Below are positions 5,409 through 12,872 of a stretch of 64,000 nucleotides of DNA, one piece after another. The stretch comes from a virus (Duplodnaviria > Heunggongvirae > Uroviricota > Caudoviricetes). Numbering within the stretch: position 1 is the stretch's first letter; each line of letters starts with the position of its first letter. The DNA lies in the IMG/VR virus record IMGVR_UViG_2541047596_000003. One strand, 5' to 3'. A program made the position numbers and the translations under genes. The notes beneath the pieces are model-generated. The model did not search any database. It was not told where the DNA came from and saw nothing but the letters and a program-made list of their open reading frames with translations.

Positions 5409-5804
5409 CTAACCTCGCATGTCAAAGCCAGATTTCTGAAAATCTCTGTAGACTTCCGGATTGTTGAAGGCCGGAAATTTGGCTTTATGAGCTGCGGACT
5501 TTATCGCTTCGCAATAGGCTTTATCACCGTTACTGGTAGATATTTTTAACGCCGTGCCATCCTGAGAGAATTCCATATGCAACCTGCATTTTTTCCCTTT
5601 CCAGTTATGCGGCTCATCAAGTTTGGCATTAATTGCAGCTCTGATTCCCCGCGCTTGCGCCCCCCATTCATCCTGATCATCCCAGCGTCCTGAACTGCAA
5701 CTACCTGTAGCAGTAGTTTTGTGGCAATCTGAAGGGTGTAAAGGTGTGCATCCCGCAACAAAACCGACCCAAAAAGTCAACATAACGATTTTCTTTAATC
5801 CCAC
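5409..5804 (-). CDS. lipoprotein with divergent TolA domain III-like C-terminus
   Basis: Signal peptide with lipobox VAGC; C-terminus ...KGKKCRLHMEFSQDGTALKISTSNGDKAYCEAIKSAAHKAKFPAFNNPEVYRDF resembles TolA-III; start 5804 is GTG with SD GAGGAG. Confidence 0.6.
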   Translation of the reverse strand: MGLKKIVMLTFWVGFVAGCTPLHPSDCHKTTATGSCSSGRWDDQDEWGAQARGIRAAINAKLDEPHNWKGKKCRLHMEFSQDGTALKISTSNGDKAYCEAIKSAAHKAKFPAFNNPEVYRDFQKSGFDMRG

Positions 5805-5954: not shown

Positions 5955-6383
5955 TCAGGGTTTAAAATCCAGCACCCCATTTTGAAATACTTTATATACT
6001 TCCGGCGAAGGGGGGGCAGGTATATCAGCATTCTTTATCGCATTCATCGCTTCACGACATAAATCGAGGTCTCCACTTTCTCTTTTAACCTCCAGTAGAA
6101 GGCCATTCGGGGCCATATGCATTCTCAGTGTACACTCTTTTCCTGAATACTTACTCGCATCCCCGAACTGTTTTTCGATGGCGCTCTTGATTTGATGGGC
6201 ATACAGACGGATATCCTCACTAACATCAGAAGTACGTTCAGATGAACTCACATACTGTGTCTCTATTGCTTTATCGGAGTAATATGATGTACGGTCATGA
6301 TAATTTGTCGATACAGCATCAGTGCACCCGATAATAATCCCACTAATAATCAACGTAAGAATTGATGCGCTACGAAAACCCAT
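5955..6383 (-). CDS. lipoprotein with TolA domain III-like C-terminus
   Basis: Signal peptide with lipobox IIGC; C-terminal ~90 aa YAHQIKSAIEKQFGDASKYSGKECTLRMHMAPNGLLLEV...CREAMNAIKNADIPAPPSPEVYKVFQNGVLDFKP closely parallels recalled E. coli TolA C-terminus ending ...VYEVFKNAPLDFKP. Confidence 0.65.
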   Translation of the reverse strand: MGFRSASILTLIISGIIIGCTDAVSTNYHDRTSYYSDKAIETQYVSSSERTSDVSEDIRLYAHQIKSAIEKQFGDASKYSGKECTLRMHMAPNGLLLEVKRESGDLDLCREAMNAIKNADIPAPPSPEVYKVFQNGVLDFKP

Positions 6384-6442: not shown

Positions 6443-7319
6443 ACAGCGAATCAGATCAAATAAAACGCACATTTGTTAACATTTACACAAAGTCTGCGTG
6501 GGATATTCTGAAAGAATATCCATAATGTGGAGAGAATCTATTGAAGTGCATGGTGCCGGGTGCCTCCCGGTGAACAAAATGTTCGTGATACCTGTCGGCG
6601 ACAGAAAAGGTTAATGGTATCACCCCACCGCACAGGGGGATTCACCATGCAGGAGTTTTCTTAGCAAACTCACTGCGCGCCCGGCAACTCCCAACCACAT
6701 AAAATGCGGAGTTTGTGGTATTTATGCATATAACTCGCAGGAATTATCTTAAAAAACTGATGTCGATCCGGATTAAAAAGAAGCAGGTCATCATCAGATG
6801 ACTGGAAAAAAGGAAAACAAAAAATACTCATCATACAGTTTTGATTGCAGGGATGAGCCTGCTATGCACAATATGCAGAATATAAGCAAGATAAAAATAT
6901 GCAGGCATATTATTTCGGATTTTGTTATTAACACAACCTTTTTAATAATCATTTGGCATACAATAAACCAGCCCAAAAAGAACCGCCTAAACAGGCGGTT
7001 GGTCAATACAAAGGATGCTTCGTCTTTATTATAGTAATCTGAGGCGTCGGGTGTCTTGTATCAGACAACATATTGTCCCGCTAAACAGCGAATTACAAAC
7101 CACCCTGCAATGATCTCTCATCTCATTTTATATGAGTTGACGACATCAGGATAACGCATCATCAGCCCCTGCCAAGAAATATCAAAACTCCCGCCAGCAA
7201 TGTGTTATCACAATATTGTAAAAAAAACACAGCACCGAAACTATAACTGGTCTCTGTTATAATTTGGAGCAGAAAGACCAGTTGCCCAACTAGCAGCATT
7301 CTCCCCTGCTTTCCTGACG

Positions 7320-7348
7320 TAAAAAAACCGCATTAAGCGGTTTTTTTA
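7320..7348 (-). terminator. tR'-like rho-independent terminator downstream of the Q-like gene
   Basis: AAAAAAACCGC-ATTAA-GCGGTTTTTTT, a symmetric hairpin with U-runs on both strands, ~80 nt after the Q-like stop. Confidence 0.5.
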
Positions 7349-7427
7349 CGATGTCCATGTCTGCAATCCGCCTCGCGATACAGCTTTGCGAAGCATAGCA
7401 AAATTGAAGCAGTTTATACGTAAGAAA

Positions 7428-7970
7428 TCAAGCCATTTTCTCAGCAAATGATTCACGCATGGGAATATATAGGGCATACTCAGCAACAGCTAACCAATTA
7501 GCAATCCGTTTTTCGCATGTGCTAAAACACCACTCTGGGTGTGCATCATTTAGCAATTCAGCCATTTTGCGCTTAGTCATCCCCCGCCCTTCATAGCGTT
7601 GCCGGAGAATGCAAATCAATCCTGGATGCTCTGCCAGCACCTCACTTATGACTCGATCAATACATAACGCCTCTGCATCAGTACAATGCGCCAGCCAGCT
7701 CTTTTGCTTGCCGTTGATCATCTCTCGCAAAAACGCTTCCAGCTCAGCTTTCTCTATTCCCGCTTTTTTCATTCTGCGCAGGGCTTCATTAATGGCTGTT
7801 TTCGTCAGTTTTTTGGATGCCAACAACTGATTGAACATATTCCCTGACCTGCCACCGCCAATATACGACCAGCGCCCCCACATACGTAGTTTTCCCTGAA
7901 TCCAGACACTTTCCAGCGTGGTGAGGCGAAGGTGTTCTCCGCTTTTTCCTGTATTCGTTGGGTAAATCAT
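7428..7970 (-). CDS. putative late-gene antiterminator (Q-like)
   Basis: 180 aa ORF at the Q position, between ybcO-like and the terminator/lysis region; assignment positional. Confidence 0.45.
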   Translation of the reverse strand: MIYPTNTGKSGEHLRLTTLESVWIQGKLRMWGRWSYIGGGRSGNMFNQLLASKKLTKTAINEALRRMKKAGIEKAELEAFLREMINGKQKSWLAHCTDAEALCIDRVISEVLAEHPGLICILRQRYEGRGMTKRKMAELLNDAHPEWCFSTCEKRIANWLAVAEYALYIPMRESFAEKMA

Positions 7971-8257
7971 AAATGACCTTTCTTTCTCCAGATTTCTTGT
8001 GTGCGAAAAACCCCTTCAGCATGCATCAGGCGCAATTCTTCTTTGGTGTAATCGCTGGTTTTTACCCGCCCGTCGATTAGATCGTGGCATGAGCTACAGG
8101 CTATCGCCGCCTGCATATCGTGTGGTTTTGTCGCTGTTCCGCACGTCCCCGCCAGCCTGTAATGCGCCAGCACAGAGGTTTCGGGATTGTGATTGCAGTA
8201 GCCAGGGATTCTGATCTGGCACATCTGGCCTTTAGCCGCTTTACGTAAATTCACCAT
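7967..8257 (-). CDS. YbcO-like putative nuclease (DUF1364)
   Basis: 96 aa, Cys/His-rich (CSSCHDLIDGR); resembles DLP12 YbcO; ATGA overlap with the Q-like start. Confidence 0.55.
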   Translation of the reverse strand: MVNLRKAAKGQMCQIRIPGYCNHNPETSVLAHYRLAGTCGTATKPHDMQAAIACSSCHDLIDGRVKTSDYTKEELRLMHAEGVFRTQEIWRKKGHL

Positions 8258-8856
8258 TACGCAAACTCCAGTAGTTGTGCGGCCACATTTTCAACTTCCT
8301 CCTGAGAGGAGAATTTACGAAACAGAATCCAGTTCCACAGCACATTCAGTACAGATTTATAAACCTGCTGAAACTCGACTTCGTCCATATTCGCAAAAGC
8401 GATGGATTTTGCCCGACGCCCACGGCTACCGTCCGGATAAATATGCTCGGTGTAAAATCCGGCCTGAATGGTTACCCACTCGCGGAAAGCCTCAAACGAC
8501 TTTAGCAACGCCGTATCCCGGGTTCTACGAGTCGCAACGGTGTTAAGGTATTGCTCTGCGGCATCACTCAGGGCTGGCGTGTGTTCCCGACCAACTGATT
8601 CGCACAGGTAATCAACGAAACCAGACAGCAGTTCTCGTTCGCGAGGCGTGATCGCCCCACCGACCGGAGTCCAGTAATCGAATCCCAGTTGCAGGAGTTT
8701 GAAAAAACGCTTGTGGAATGCGTAGTTACGCACACGCTTAAAGTCTGCGTGTATCCACTCACCTATTTTGATTTGATGCAGAAAATCGCAACTCTCCGGC
8801 GTCGCCGGGAGAAGTAAACCAGAAGAAGTTTGTTTGACCAGTTGTATATGCGCCAT
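8257..8856 (-). CDS. YdfU-like DUF1367 phage protein
   Basis: 199 aa ORF coupled to ybcO-like; similarity to Qin YdfU recalled, not computed. Confidence 0.45.
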   Translation of the reverse strand: MAHIQLVKQTSSGLLLPATPESCDFLHQIKIGEWIHADFKRVRNYAFHKRFFKLLQLGFDYWTPVGGAITPRERELLSGFVDYLCESVGREHTPALSDAAEQYLNTVATRRTRDTALLKSFEAFREWVTIQAGFYTEHIYPDGSRGRRAKSIAFANMDEVEFQQVYKSVLNVLWNWILFRKFSSQEEVENVAAQLLEFA

Positions 8857-9136
8857 TTCTCAATCTCTCGATGGCGCAGCGCAGCAGATGCCAGTTGTTC
8901 AGGCTGACGAATAAAGTATAAATAAACTGGCTATGGTGTAAAGCCCCACATAGCATGAACAAACACTACATATCAAATAGCTGGTACAAGGATAGAAATA
9001 CGACATTTATTATTAAAAACGATTAGATAAATTACATTTTAATGTTATGCAAAAGTTCTTTTTTATCATAACATTTCAATAAAAGCATTACAGATGCAAT
9101 CATCCCGTCATCATCAATTATTTAAGGTGGTTAAAC

Positions 9137-9223
9137 ATGGAAAATAACAAGTTCGCACATCTCGCTCCTTTTTTATCCGTAATCCTTTTCGCTTGTTGTT
9201 TTATATGGGCATTATTTTTATAA
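9137..9223 (+). CDS. 28-codon hydrophobic peptide ORF (MENNKFAHLAPFLSVILFACCFIWALFL)
   Basis: ATG 9137 preceded by SD AAGGTGG; single predicted TM; lies in an AT-rich stretch with no ORF of 60 aa or more. Confidence 0.3.
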   Translation: MENNKFAHLAPFLSVILFACCFIWALFL

Positions 9224-9627
9224 AGTAGCCACATGATAAGTTGCTGGAATCATATTTCCCACTCAAGTCATTAACATTTGATAAGATATATCTAAAAGGA
9301 CGCCTTTACATTATTTATGTGTATATAATTTATTTATATACACAGTAAAGGTATCCTGGGAAAATATTTATCGTTAAAAAATACATCATAAATAATTAAG
9401 CTGAAATTTCAGAACACAACTAATACACACAATAAGGTTCAGTAACAATAATCTATGTGGACTACATCGAGATTTTTTGATTAAACTTTAATAACTTATT
9501 CCTAACACACAGAATGCATAAACTAAAAGTAAAACAAATAGTTATACGAAAAACAACCATATTTATTATATCTTCTCCTCTAATCAACATATCAATTATG
9601 TGTTTCATAACAGCTTGACATAACCCT

Positions 9628-9658
9628 CAAAAACACGCATTTATAATGCATGTTTTTG
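9628..9658. promoter_or_regulatory. operator-like palindrome over a TATAAT box upstream of the yeaR-like gene
   Basis: CAAAAACACGCAT-TTATAA-TGCATGTTTTTG (13-bp arms, one mismatch); TTGACA at 9615-9620; resembles NsrR-type sites as I recall them. Confidence 0.35.
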
Positions 9659-9669
9659 AGGAGGTGGTT

Positions 9670-10008
9670 ATGACACACAAGAGAATTCCTAAAGATTGGG
9701 TAATCAAACGCTCAACTCCGTTCTTCACAAAAGAGAACGTACCTTCAGCGTTATTAACACATCATAATACAGCAGCAGGTGTTTTTGGGCAGTTGTGCGT
9801 AATGGAAGGCACTGTAACATATTATGGTTTTACTGATGAGAATGCTACTGAACCGGAGATAAAAGTAGTCATTAATGCTGGCGCTTTTGCAACAAGCCCA
9901 CCACAATACTGGCACCGTGTTGAACTAAGCGATGATGCTCAGTTTAATATTAACTTTTGGGTCGCTCCAGACTTCTCGGGCGAAAAAGTCTATAGCACCA
10001 AAAAATAG
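9670..10008 (+). CDS. YeaR-like DUF1971 protein (TehB N-domain-like)
   Basis: 112 aa from ATG 9670 with SD GAGGAGGTGG; motifs STPFF, HHNTAAGV, MEGTVTYYGF, FNINFWVAP resemble chromosomal YeaR; ORF track start 9646. Confidence 0.6.
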   Translation: MTHKRIPKDWVIKRSTPFFTKENVPSALLTHHNTAAGVFGQLCVMEGTVTYYGFTDENATEPEIKVVINAGAFATSPPQYWHRVELSDDAQFNINFWVAPDFSGEKVYSTKK

Positions 10009-10037
10009 ATGATCATATTAAAAATGCTTTAACAGTC

Positions 10038-10075
10038 AGACCCGGCAGGGCTATCCCCGACGGGTCTCATTTTTG
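10038..10075 (+). terminator. rho-independent terminator after the yeaR-like gene
   Basis: Stem AGACCCG / CGGGTCT with a 16-nt loop, then TTTT at 10071-10074. Confidence 0.45.
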
Positions 10076-10459
10076 TAAATATATTGGTTCTACATTGACA
10101 GGAGACTTCAACCATAAGAAGTAATCTGAATACTTGAGCAATAAATTTACTTAAGATTAATGAGCGCACCTTGCCGGACAAAGATAAACCAAGGTAACAC
10201 CTTTTTTCTAGCCAGTATGTAATCAATCAGAAAGCCGCTCCATAAGAACAACAGCAAGACAATAAATTGCCATTACAGCCGCAATAGCCAGCGCACATTT
10301 GAGAACCAGCACGACACCCCCCTGTATTAGACGCACACCAGTCCTGATAAATATAAGGCTGTCTCGTCAGTGATTCAATACAACTATTGGGTATAGTTTC
10401 TGTGATTTTATTCTGTAGAAATGGAACACAACAACCAGTCACCACCAGCACTTCTTTAA

Positions 10460-10471
10460 ATACGCCAAGTC
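10460..10471. repeat. 12-bp direct repeat AATACGCCAAGT, left copy
   Basis: Perfect copy of the 12-mer also at 12239-12250; the two bracket the low-GC HEPN-like gene. Confidence 0.5.
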
Positions 10472-10484
10472 CGACGCAAGCTAA

Positions 10485-10550
10485 CCTTCTAGTCCGCTTT
10501 GAGCGAGAAGCGGAAGTCTCGGTCTTATTATGTTCTGAGACTAGAAGGTA
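10485..10550. repeat. nested inverted-repeat element
   Basis: Outer 11-bp arms ACCTTCTAGTC / GACTAGAAGGT 44 bp apart, enclosing TCCGCTT/AAGCGGA and AGTCTC/GAGACT stems. Confidence 0.4.
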
Positions 10551-10678
10551 TTTCTTAAGGATGATTATTCGTTACGCCTACATATAATAGAAACAGAAAT
10601 TTAAAGTTTAAATCTAGGTATCTGGCTAATGATACCTAGATTGAATTTGAATCATATTTTGTTAGTTAACTTTAACTA

Positions 10679-12046
10679 TTATCTTTCTCCAACATCCTCT
10701 TCTAAAACATGATCTATCTTATCTACAGGAAGATTATCATACTTAGAAAAATCAAAACCATCGGGAAGTTTATTTTTTGCTGCTTTTAATATTCTTATTG
10801 AATCGTTACCGTTTCTAGAGCGATTTCGCCAATAACATTGATTGTTTTTGTTTGCTCCTTCAAGCAGGGTTAACATTTGCTCGCTTGAGTAATTAGCCAA
10901 GTCTTTGTCAATAAATCTATCAAAATATATATCGGCTCGTTCGAAATCAGCACTATTTATAAAACAAGCAATTCCAAAATCGCGATACTCTGATTCCAAA
11001 CCTAATTCGCTGCAAACATTTTTAAAAATTGCCAAATGTTGCTGGTTGAGAAAATTCCCATTATCCCCGTATTTTTTGTAATATTTTTCAGATATTCTTT
11101 TTGTTACGCGATTAATGTGTTCCTCCGGCGATTCAGATATAAAAAAGGCTATTCCAAAATAAGATATGTTATCTTTTATAATAGGCTTTATGAGTTCTTT
11201 TACTGAATCATCCAAGGCGTTATATATTTCTTTCTCCATGGAAATGAACTCAATTAGTGCCTTAATTGCATCATGGTTATTGGAAATATTGGAGTAATAA
11301 GCAGTTTCTGCTTTAACCGAGTCCACCATGGCTTGCCTGTCTTTTTCAAATATCAGTTTCATAGCTCTGATATTTATCTCTCTATTTTCTAATGGCTTAG
11401 CTTCTTCAGATCTAAACGAAAACTTCCACAACCCCTTGAATATCTTAACTAATACTTCCTTGTTTAAAGATTTGAAATATTTAACATCTAAGTATTTTTT
11501 TAGCGCGTTATCGGAAGGGAATAGGTCCTTTACCTTTTCTAGATCTGCAACAAATGTGGAAAGTATTTTTTGAGACATAAATGGCGGCTTGCTTAATATT
11601 ACTTCTATACTATTCCTAATGTCACTTCTAATCATTTCCTGTGTTGGCTCGAATAACGTATCTTCGTCACTTATTACGGGATGGGCAGATAAATGCCTGT
11701 GTTTTTGAATAAGTAAAACTTTATGGTTTGAAGCAGTGTCTAATAATTGAGTTCTTTCAAAAACTCTTTTAATAAGCTCTTTTTCCCATTTAGGAGAGTA
11801 AGGATCATCGTTTTGTAGTGCTTCAATTTCTAATAATATCTTTTCCGCAACAGCATCGTTATGAACATCTCGCAGTTCTTGGAGCTTAAAAATAATATCA
11901 CATACAACTACTGACCATAGCATCACGGTAGCAGAACGGTAACAACCATTAGCATAGCTCTTATAAACCTCTTCAAAATATTTTCTAGTTCTTCTATCAT
12001 AAATTTTACTCTTCTGAGATTCTAATGAGAATATTCTAACGTCCAT
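10679..12046 (-). CDS. HEPN-like protein, candidate abortive-infection/defence effector (function unproven)
   Basis: 455 aa from ATG 12046 with SD GGAGA; markedly AT-rich versus neighbours; KHRHLSAHP contains an R-x4-H motif after a predicted helical N-terminal region; ORF track start 12094. Confidence 0.6.
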
Positions 12047-12238
12047 AATTTCTCCATGAAAAATATTTAACTCAAATAATTGAATATGAATCATGTAGTC
12101 ATAAATACTTCAAAATTATATTTTTAGCCCACTTAATTCATACAAAACTTCTTTAATAAACTGATTCAGGCCTCATGCATTATGCTTTTAACAAACTATC
12201 CTAACCTTCATAGTGTAAATCTTGATGTTCAATTTTAC

Positions 12239-12250
12239 AATACGCCAAGT
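12239..12250. repeat. 12-bp direct repeat AATACGCCAAGT, right copy
   Basis: Second perfect copy, 1779 bp from the first. Confidence 0.5.
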
Positions 12251-12434
12251 TTCCGTAAATCAATGAATGCGTCGGATTTTACAATAATTTAAAAGAGATG
12301 TTGAATAGTATCCATGAAGTGTAAGGTTAATATACCCAAAACGTCCGCCTCTGGCACAAAGCGGACAACCACGCTAGCTCTACCCTGTGCCACAAAATGT
12401 CAATTTGCATCTGAACTAATGCACTTTAATCTCG

Positions 12435-12857
12435 TCACTTCAATAAATACCGAACATCACCCTGATAAAACGACAATATGCGCTGCATAACTTCACTCTT
12501 CCGGCACTCGCGACAGATTATGTTCTGACGCCTGTCGTAGCGACGTATTTCTCCGTCAGGTAATGACCAGATAAGGTCCGGATCAACCGCAGATGGTTTC
12601 TTCAGCTTTGCCCTTGAGAGCTTTTTACGGGCATTTTGCCAGTCCTTACGCGCCTGTTCAGACGGGAATAACCCGTAACCAGAGTTGTATACATCGCCGC
12701 TGGCAACCAGCTCTCTTGCGAGAACGCTCATCAGATATCTTGTCGCATCTGTCTTGACTTCCAGTTGCCGTAACGTCTCGCGTCCACTCCGGCGTACTAG
12801 CTCAACAACCTGCCCTTTAATTTTTTCCCGCTCTTCCTGTGTAAAAACTTTTGCCAT
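12435..12857 (-). CDS. hypothetical phage protein
   Basis: 140 aa from ATG 12857 (MAKVFTQEER) with SD GGAGG; contains a CRECRK motif; ORF track start 12872 is TTG. Confidence 0.45.
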   Translation of the reverse strand: MAKVFTQEEREKIKGQVVELVRRSGRETLRQLEVKTDATRYLMSVLARELVASGDVYNSGYGLFPSEQARKDWQNARKKLSRAKLKKPSAVDPDLIWSLPDGEIRRYDRRQNIICRECRKSEVMQRILSFYQGDVRYLLK

Positions 12858-12872
12858 AAGCGCCTCCGGCAA

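Follow-up and report, generated by a model that had tools for sequence, protein, structure and literature searches.

The window analysed here is the whole 64,000-nucleotide stretch of a virus of the Caudoviricetes (IMG/VR record IMGVR_UViG_2541047596_000003), and it carries a Rac-like prophage. This study concerns an AT-rich interval at positions 8857-9645 and, within it, a 28-codon open reading frame (ORF) that follows a Shine-Dalgarno (SD) sequence. An earlier reading of the letters alone, referred to below as the original prediction, proposed that this ORF encodes a type I toxin. Comparison of related prophages indicates that the ORF is most likely a genuine gene of the prophage backbone, encoding a small membrane peptide and not annotated before. 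The argument turns on two features:

9137-9223, plus strand: 28-codon ORF encoding MENNKFAHLAPFLSVILFACCFIWALFL (28 amino acids [aa])
9124-9130, plus strand: SD sequence AAGGTGG, with six-base spacing to the ATG

The coordinates and spacing of both elements had been given correctly, as had the AT-rich character of the stretch, in which G+C is 0.26-0.30 over 8950-9700 compared with about 0.50 in the flanking phage genes. The layout of MENNKFAHLAPFLSVILFACCFIWALFL comprises a polar start, MENNKFAH, followed by a 20-residue predicted membrane-spanning segment that reaches the C-terminus. The claim that no ORF of 60 aa or more is present holds inside the stretch, with one exception at its edge: a TTG-started frame of 67 aa (8759-8962, minus strand) is the sole ORF of that size touching 8857-9645, and most of it lies over the neighbouring gene, read in a different frame, so that it is not credible. 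Taken alone, the 28-codon ORF is not significant, because 11% of 2000 shuffles of the 789 bp yielded an ATG-started frame of 28 codons or longer with a 5-mer SD match; its weight thus rests on comparative data. This chance rate favours an alternative in which there is no gene at all. The block would then be non-coding phage DNA, either an insulator (a minus-strand terminator before ninB-Q) together with promoters or a recombination boundary, and the ORF and SD match would be by-products of AT-rich sequence.

Distribution and conservation of the 28-codon frame

The block at 8880-9245 is recurrent in lambdoid prophages of Escherichia and Shigella. By megablast, the stretch was present in 852 of 5,426 complete E. 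coli genomes. The full 786 bp was found in 462 of the 852, and in the remaining genomes only query positions 1-365 matched, at about 76-78% identity, with the match ending one base past the ORF stop. A probe for allele 2, one of three alleles of the ORF, matched 752 genomes; E. coli W/KO11FL bears this allele (NC_017660.1, about 3,369,700), whereas the copy in E. coli strain 165 (NZ_CP020509.1, about 2,697,500) is identical to that of the window. The pattern of SD plus start codon occurred in at least 120 IMG/VR prophage contigs and, among species-representative genomes, in Shigella flexneri and Escherichia ruysiae only, plus one chance match. Searches with tblastn recovered only four E. coli phages from 50,697 phages and, from plasmids, only two records, both of which are really chromosomes. 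Two degenerate back-translated patterns that excluded the known haplotypes found nothing in IMG/VR.

PGAP has placed no annotation at the ORF in any listed genome (roughly 850-1,240 genomes), an exact look-up of six peptide variants among 15 billion proteins returned none, and the peptide sequence was found in no paper by a literature text search. That the frame has never been called, and is absent from so large a protein set, is what would be expected of a non-coding block. However, an ORF of 87 nt including the stop may fall below the length accepted by gene callers and pipelines, in which case missing annotation says little.

Homologous loci were gathered by way of a conserved upstream island, blind to the ORF, which avoided selection for intact ORFs and yielded 159 usable loci. 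The original prediction had named conservation of the frame in related prophages as a check; when this was run, start, stop and length were kept in 159 of 159 loci across three diverged alleles. The ORF was intact at exactly 28 codons throughout (18 nucleotide haplotypes encoding 14 peptides), with no indel, internal stop, start loss or stop loss, and indels were seen in the flanks only. In addition, five aligned loci with differing right neighbours (DUF1971, iteS/iteA and hokD-relBE) retained the start, frame, stop and SD and showed several synonymous changes in the ORF. At least 32 substitution events have occurred in the ORF, and since 10.7% of possible single changes would be disruptive, the probability that none was disruptive is 0.026. 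None of the 13 amino-acid alternatives at residues 10-28 was charged, strongly polar, proline or stop (P = 0.034), compared with an expectation of 23% among possible non-synonymous changes. Mean Kyte-Doolittle hydropathy of residues 10-28 stayed at 2.3-2.7 in all 14 variants. Thus, the description of the peptide as hydrophobic was borne out, with replacements across the variants preserving this character. The ratio pN/pS was about 0.38 for the ORF, and no other reading frame was consistently open across alleles. The SD core AAGGTG was retained in 124 of the 159 loci, with AAGGTA in one.

The profile of nucleotide identity between allele 1 and alleles 2 and 3 across the block was as follows:

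ninB-proximal segment: 0.92 (0.77 against allele 3, whose left gene differs)
spacer: 0.50
island 9005-9052: 0.85-0.92
leader: 0.49-0.54
SD: 0.72-0.78
ORF: 0.79-0.82
past the stop: 0.2-0.4

The difference between the ORF and its leader (Fisher p = 1.4e-4) weighs against a non-coding block, as conservation at about 0.8 covers the ORF and SD and drops to 0.5 in the leader. The lack of disruptive changes in 159 loci and 18 haplotypes, and of charged or strongly polar replacements (each P ~0.03), likewise argues for coding. On the other hand, homology breaks exactly at the block ends, as mosaic junctions predict, and minus-strand signals that an insulator might use do exist, namely the hairpin H1 and the promoter-like site ahead of the ninB-like gene, both described below.

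Several observations weigh against a translated membrane peptide and must be considered. The SD is weakened to AAAGTG or AAAGCG in the 35 loci of allele 3, and substitutions are distributed 6/11/15 by codon position, a mild skew only. All homologues are close kin (at least 77% nucleotide identity, from one genus plus Shigella), and this kinship together with recombination may have inflated the apparent conservation; a family so young and narrow, with so weak a codon-position skew, also suits the non-coding alternative. A promoter scan gave no canonical plus-strand promoter upstream of the ORF, the candidates being poor (7/12), and any role of the peptide in the membrane is a guess drawn from analogy. 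Taking both sides together, we estimate a probability of roughly 0.7 that the ORF is a real peptide gene, translated and under selection for a hydrophobic helix, and we consider the non-coding block unlikely.

Signals around the ORF and the type I toxin question

The sequence upstream of the ORF holds the following elements:

9005-9052, both strands: conserved island, about 85-130 nt upstream of the ORF; 85-92% identical between alleles, with about 50% on either side
9010-9015 and 9033-9038, plus strand: promoter candidate TTATTA, 17 nt, TACATT; weak, 7/12 in three alleles
9046-9074, plus strand: promoter candidate TATGCA-17-TAACAT; 7/12, conserved in all alleles
9004-9008 / 9017-9021, minus strand: hairpin H1, a 5-bp stem with a T-rich tail; called terminator-like in allele 2
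9042-9049 / 9067-9074, plus strand: hairpin H2, with conserved arms ATGTTATG and CATAACAT and a diverged 17-nt loop
9117-9143, minus strand: antisense promoter-like motif, with -35 TTTCCA (9143..9138) on codons 1-2 and -10 AATAAT (9122..9117)

The two hairpins differ in the strand that their variants favour. In 89 loci an H2 arm reads CATAATAT, which can pair as G.U on the plus strand but is mismatched on the minus strand. H2 would be the 5'-terminal stem-loop of an mRNA if transcription starts near 9045. In H1 the allele 1 sequence contains G.U pairs that are possible only on the minus strand, plus one double change from C:G to T:A. The antisense motif is the best conserved promoter-like motif within 8950-9245, scoring 9/12 in all three alleles. 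Its -10 element sits just 5' of the SD and reads TATGAT or CATAAT in other alleles; the spacer is 15 nt in the window and 16 nt in the other alleles. H1 lies about 100 nt downstream of this motif on the minus strand.

These signals bear on the proposal of a type I toxin-antitoxin system, in which a membrane-damaging peptide would be paired with a cis antisense RNA of about 100-110 nt, in a layout resembling those of ldr/rdl and hok/sok. The RNA would start over the start codon and SD, run antisense through the leader and end at H1 (9021..9004). The antisense motif outscores every plus-strand candidate and is kept in all three alleles; however, its -35 element would be fixed anyway by the Met-Glu codons. 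The terminator-like form of H1 on the minus strand, with its minus-only G.U pairs and one compensatory change, is consistent with an RNA end at this position, but the stem is of 5 bp, it is very weak in the window allele, and three loci carry an opposite variant favouring the plus strand. Furthermore, promoter and terminator matches of like quality were about equally common in shuffles (2.0 promoter-like and 0.4-0.7 terminator-like matches per region), so that the real signals are not in excess.

In hok, tisB and zorO the ribosome-binding site is typically buried in an extended, structured leader. This feature is not universal among type I toxins, and the leader of the 28-codon ORF does not have it. 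The plus-strand fold of the window gave z = -0.7 with the SD not occluded, and folds of the mRNA leader in four alleles (z = -0.9, -2.9, -0.2 and -0.7) revealed no common structure. For the putative antisense RNA, z was -1.8, -0.2 and -1.4, with no significant shared fold; RNAalifold was weak on both strands, the consensus reaching only -10.8 kcal/mol, and no direct repeats able to give trans-pairing were found. Two candidate structures were rejected. A minus-strand window fold with z = -2.8 was not common to the other alleles, and a hok-like fold-back pairing of the SD with sequence after the stop showed apparent compensatory changes, yet was no better than shuffles.

The peptide is small, conserved and almost wholly hydrophobic, as type I toxins are expected to be, and the element is prophage-borne and adjoins defence and addiction genes. 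Its sequence nonetheless resembles neither Hok, Ldr, Fst, Ibs, ShoB or TisB nor the remaining family models. At permissive thresholds in Pfam, NCBIfam, PHROG and PADLOC, no family model reached E = 0.01 for the peptide, and profile matches to Sec20, Lp6.6 and Rz-like families were discarded as noise (E at least 0.05). There was no Hok/Gef match in Pfam or NCBIfam up to E = 10. No model of Ibs, ShoB, TisB, DinQ or ZorO matched at E 0.01 in Pfam-A, NCBIfam, PHROGs or PADLOC, the coverage of these toxins by the models being unchecked. BLASTP of the peptide against LdrA gave no alignment, and Rfam over 7000-12500 returned sub-threshold noise only.

Among known systems, the type I pairs Ldr/Rdl (ldrA-rdlA of K-12) and Ibs/Sib of E. 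coli are close in layout, having in common with this locus a single hydrophobic helix in a peptide of 19-35 aa, an ordinary SD, and a putative opposite-strand RNA over the toxin 5' region in the position that rdlA takes relative to ldrA. Read by eye, the peptide and LdrA both contain Ala-Pro with a Trp 13 residues on. We rejected a relationship, as this similar spacing of motifs is accompanied by no alignment and the peptide ends ...WALFL with no basic residues, lacking the basic C-terminal tail of Ldr and Fst. In contrast to Ldr/Rdl and Ibs/Sib, the present locus has no tandem copies and is prophage-borne, and its antisense RNA is a motif-level prediction. Like hok/sok (Hok/Gef, Rfam RF01794), it would be a small membrane peptide gene on a mobile element. 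However, the 28-aa peptide is unrelated to Hok, and there is neither a mok-like overlapping frame nor a fold-back mRNA structure. Two other interpretations of the peptide were also set aside: a lipoprotein signal peptide, because the L-F-A-C motif is not retained in other alleles, and the truncated 5' end of a longer gene, because the same stop and length occur in all cargo classes and there is no longer homologue.

A genuine type I system, hok/sok, is part of the neighbourhood of the small ORF, as judged from sequence matches in relatives. In 83 of 98 "class C" loci hok converges on the small ORF, the hok stop lying 110 nt from the ORF stop, and a full Rfam match to sok (115.8 bits) stands beside the small ORF in relatives (locus L018, 3830-4160). 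In the window, tblastn with Hok found no hok and Rfam found no sok, and DUF1971-type and IetAS-type loci have the small ORF but no hok; the ORF is thus not part of the hok/sok module. In locus L005 a Hok/Gef gene follows DUF1971. An insertion sequence (IS) with the end CATAAGCGCTAACTTAAGGGTTG and a 372-aa transposase-like ORF (MPMNYSHDNW...) occupies the 3' flank of the hok locus in L019 (4350-4900); it is presumably IS186-like, judging from this end sequence. Insertions of IS elements in or beside the block were also seen in L080 and H40.

In sum, the small, hydrophobic and conserved peptide stands from the type I proposal of the original prediction, and no toxin family, Rfam RNA or sequestered SD accompanies it. 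The antisense promoter-like motif and the weak H1 hairpin keep the proposal in play. We regard it as somewhat doubtful that the peptide and an antisense RNA of about 100 nt constitute a new, sequence-orphan type I family on the Rac-like backbone, bordering an undescribed defence hotspot. Such a family might stabilise the cargo slot described below. Alternatively, it might bring about abortive infection at the membrane, the effector being set free by a change in antisense transcription upon infection or induction.

Prophage setting and the adjacent cargo slot

The genes and sites that flank the ORF in the window are these:

8257-8856, minus strand: DUF1367/NinB-Orf-like gene (Pfam/PHROG), first of a DUF1367-YbcO-Q (DUF1133) group
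8915-8942, minus strand: promoter-like site TTTACA-16-TATACT (10/12), directly upstream of the DUF1367/NinB-like gene
9224-9669, plus strand: AT-rich leader of the DUF1971 module, outside the peptide gene, with a long hairpin, TTGACA (9615-9620) and a palindrome
9670-10008, plus strand: DUF1971 (YeaR-like) gene (Pfam PF09313, E = 2e-26; 41% identical to K-12 YeaR)
10679-12094, minus strand: PD-T7-3 (DARNA) anti-phage gene, 471 aa (PADLOC PDLC04108, E = 3.5e-168)
12435-12872, minus strand: DUF977 gene (Pfam PF06163), the right border of the cargo slot

The ORF occupies the fixed left edge of a slot that lies between replication genes (DnaC-like, DUF1627, DUF977) and the NinB-like, YbcO and Q genes. 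In order, the prophage carries TrkG, Rz, lysozyme, a holin, two genes with a TolA C-terminal domain, Q (DUF1133), YbcO and the NinB-like gene. Beyond the ORF region come DUF977, DUF1627 (YdaW), a DnaC-like gene and YdaT, followed by a helix-turn-helix repressor on the other strand, SieB and RecE. The early-right operon is on the minus strand, and the plus-strand small ORF is therefore antisense to it. The left neighbour had been called ydfU-like in the original prediction, an identification that was not upheld: the gene is DUF1367 and belongs to PHROG 319 ("NinB/Orf"), with no similarity to K-12 YdfU. The promoter-like site ahead of it falls within the ninB-adjacent stretch of 92-93% conservation.

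The block is separable from both of its neighbours. In about 110 of 130 loci a DUF1367 gene adjoins it on the left, and a different left gene, a 92-aa ORF (MAHDTKFYNSDN...), is found in 8 of the first 130 (for example, L017, L021 and L039). In the allele 3 representative, L133, the left gene is also not DUF1367, and its homology to the window resumes at about 8880, as in 8 others. On the right, the first large gene is of more than 30 kinds among about 130 loci. DUF977 is the nearest conserved gene past the cargo in 73 of the 76 loci in which that side was captured, and slot lengths range from 1.35 to 8.1 kb (median 3.2 kb). The small ORF thus forms an invariant left edge to a hotspot of defence genes.

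The defence content of the slot is varied. In the window it includes PD-T7-3, whose protein has an R-x4-H motif (RHLSAH). PD-T7-3 has been validated as a defence gene (PMC9519451) and recently received the new name DARNA; it is a HEPN RNase whose activator is single-stranded DNA bound by phage SSB (bioRxiv 10.64898/2026.02.22.705581). Other loci hold PD-Lambda-2_C, NsnC, an OLD/HEC-04-like ATPase, PDC-M36A or hokD-relBE (L003), as well as many genes without a PADLOC match. In the slot of some loci PGAP annotates iteA and iteS (an anti-phage ATPase and an S8 peptidase), which we take to be the published IetAS system. In P2-like phages and P4-like satellites, too, hotspots of defence genes are flanked by conserved genes (PMC9122126; PMC9519451). 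The arrangement described here resembles those in having a fixed backbone element bordering a short, swapped slot rich in anti-phage genes. It differs in its Rac-like lambdoid host, in its extent from DUF977 to the NinB-like gene, and in having a 28-codon ORF, not an essential phage gene, at its border. No description of the DUF977-NinB slot was found in a limited literature search. The ORF also shares its opposite orientation and low G+C with prophage morons. However, its own promoter and terminator were not convincingly identified, and unlike a moron it is constant beside variable cargo.

In the window, the cargo nearest to the ORF is the DUF1971 module. The 420 bp at 9224-9645 belong to this module and not to the peptide gene. 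From about 20 nt past the ORF stop, other alleles show no further homology. The leader is found only with DUF1971; among such loci its conservation is 94-100%, apart from a 57-bp indel. TTGACA, the palindrome and this DUF1971-only conservation identify 9224-9645 as the regulatory leader of a cargo gene and not as an antitoxin locus. The yeaR-like designation of the right-hand gene was sound, as it is a DUF1971 gene; its start is most likely at 9670, behind GAGGAGGTGG, as in the PGAP annotation, and not at 9646. A near-perfect palindrome at 9625-9661 (core 9632-9654) covers the promoter and SD region of DUF1971; in some relatives the core reads AAGATGCATTTTTAATGCATCTT, similar to the NsrR operator and to sequence upstream of K-12 yeaR. 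These features suggest that DUF1971 is a nitric-oxide-responsive prophage cargo gene.

Other signals in this module were examined as well. Additional coding in 9224-9645 was rejected, as the 35-, 34- and 48-aa ORFs have no SD and two of the three vary in length between close haplotypes. A weak Rfam match to "MIR7993" is simply the palindrome hairpin before DUF1971. A long imperfect hairpin spans 9297-9357 (AGGACGCCTTTAC...GTAAAGGTATCCT); within it, 9318-9344 forms a perfect stem of 11 bp. Depending on the relative, one of the outer pairs is G-C, G-T or A-T, and TTTTAG comes next on the minus strand.

The position of the ORF raises the further alternative that it is a regulatory upstream ORF or leader peptide, whose translation would itself control plus-strand transcription into the cargo by a Rho block or an attenuator. 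The ORF does point into the slot, and in the window DUF1971 comes next on the plus strand with no convincing terminator between. However, downstream sequences are unrelated between loci, with genes often on the opposite strand; IetAS-type loci have a strong bidirectional terminator within 15 nt of the ORF; and in most other loci a converging hok terminator comes next. In addition, the hydrophobicity of the peptide is itself conserved. A leader-peptide function thus appears very improbable.

The Rac prophage of K-12 lacks this part of the backbone. There (L171; NC_000913.3, 1,422,752-1,423,782), a shortened ydaW is joined directly to the rzpR pseudogene, and DUF977, the cargo slot, the small ORF, the ninB-like gene, ybcO, Q, holin and lysozyme are absent. 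K-12 is thus without the small ORF because its Rac copy lost the ydaW-rzpR segment.

Two side observations concern other parts of the window. The genes with a TolA C-terminal domain (5409-5804 and 5955-6383, both minus strand, annotated as TolA-like by PGAP) lie between Q and the holin, and they may be lysogenic-conversion or exclusion genes. At 7266-7394, each strand gave a match to isrK, a Salmonella prophage small RNA, but at 21.6 and 20.1 bits these fall short of the gathering score of 50. In the middle of both is a hairpin resembling a bidirectional terminator, AAAAAAACCGC...GCGGTTTTTTT, immediately downstream of Q.

Proposed role and implications

Enterobacteria have very small inner-membrane proteins, among them YohP, YpdK, YoaJ/YoaK, KdpF and MgtS, which are 20-35 aa long with one helix; yoaJ and yoaK are annotated genes. 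The 28-codon ORF fits the class of small membrane proteins (no more than 50 aa, one predicted helix, translation signals and conservation above chance), and it resembles these examples in size, in its strong translation signals, and in having been missed by gene callers and recognised through conservation. It is not homologous to them, and it differs in being prophage-encoded, antisense to a phage early operon and known from sequence alone.

A model of how the gene may work is proposed on this basis. In a lysogen, a short plus-strand mRNA would start within the island, at about 9045 or 9080, and would carry a 5' hairpin and a leader of 55-90 nt; both the promoters and the transcript ends are those that we infer from the motifs above. 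Translation from AAGGTGG-N6-ATG would be efficient, and the peptide would insert into the inner membrane, acting as a modulator or exclusion factor in the manner of other tiny enterobacterial peptides and not as a self-poison. Its expression may be opposed by convergent minus-strand transcription that would stop at H1, ahead of ninB, and would originate either at the motif over the start codon or from read-through of the early operon or cargo. That the peptide is a translated membrane modulator or exclusion factor of this kind, with no toxin function, is the reading that we prefer, although at less than even odds.

Each of these possibilities has its own implications. If the ORF is untranslated, the block would still be an element conserved in lambdoid prophages, as an insulator or a boundary. 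If the type I alternative is true, the locus would represent a new toxin family with a compact layout, in which the antitoxin promoter lies atop the toxin start codon. The small ORF and DUF977 are landmarks that bracket a slot which can be mined for new defence systems. Small-protein surveys reportedly used K-12, and the loss of the segment from K-12 Rac would explain why they would have missed the peptide. If the peptide is made, at least one-sixth of complete E. coli genomes would encode an unannotated protein, carried by one of the oldest prophage lineages of E. coli.

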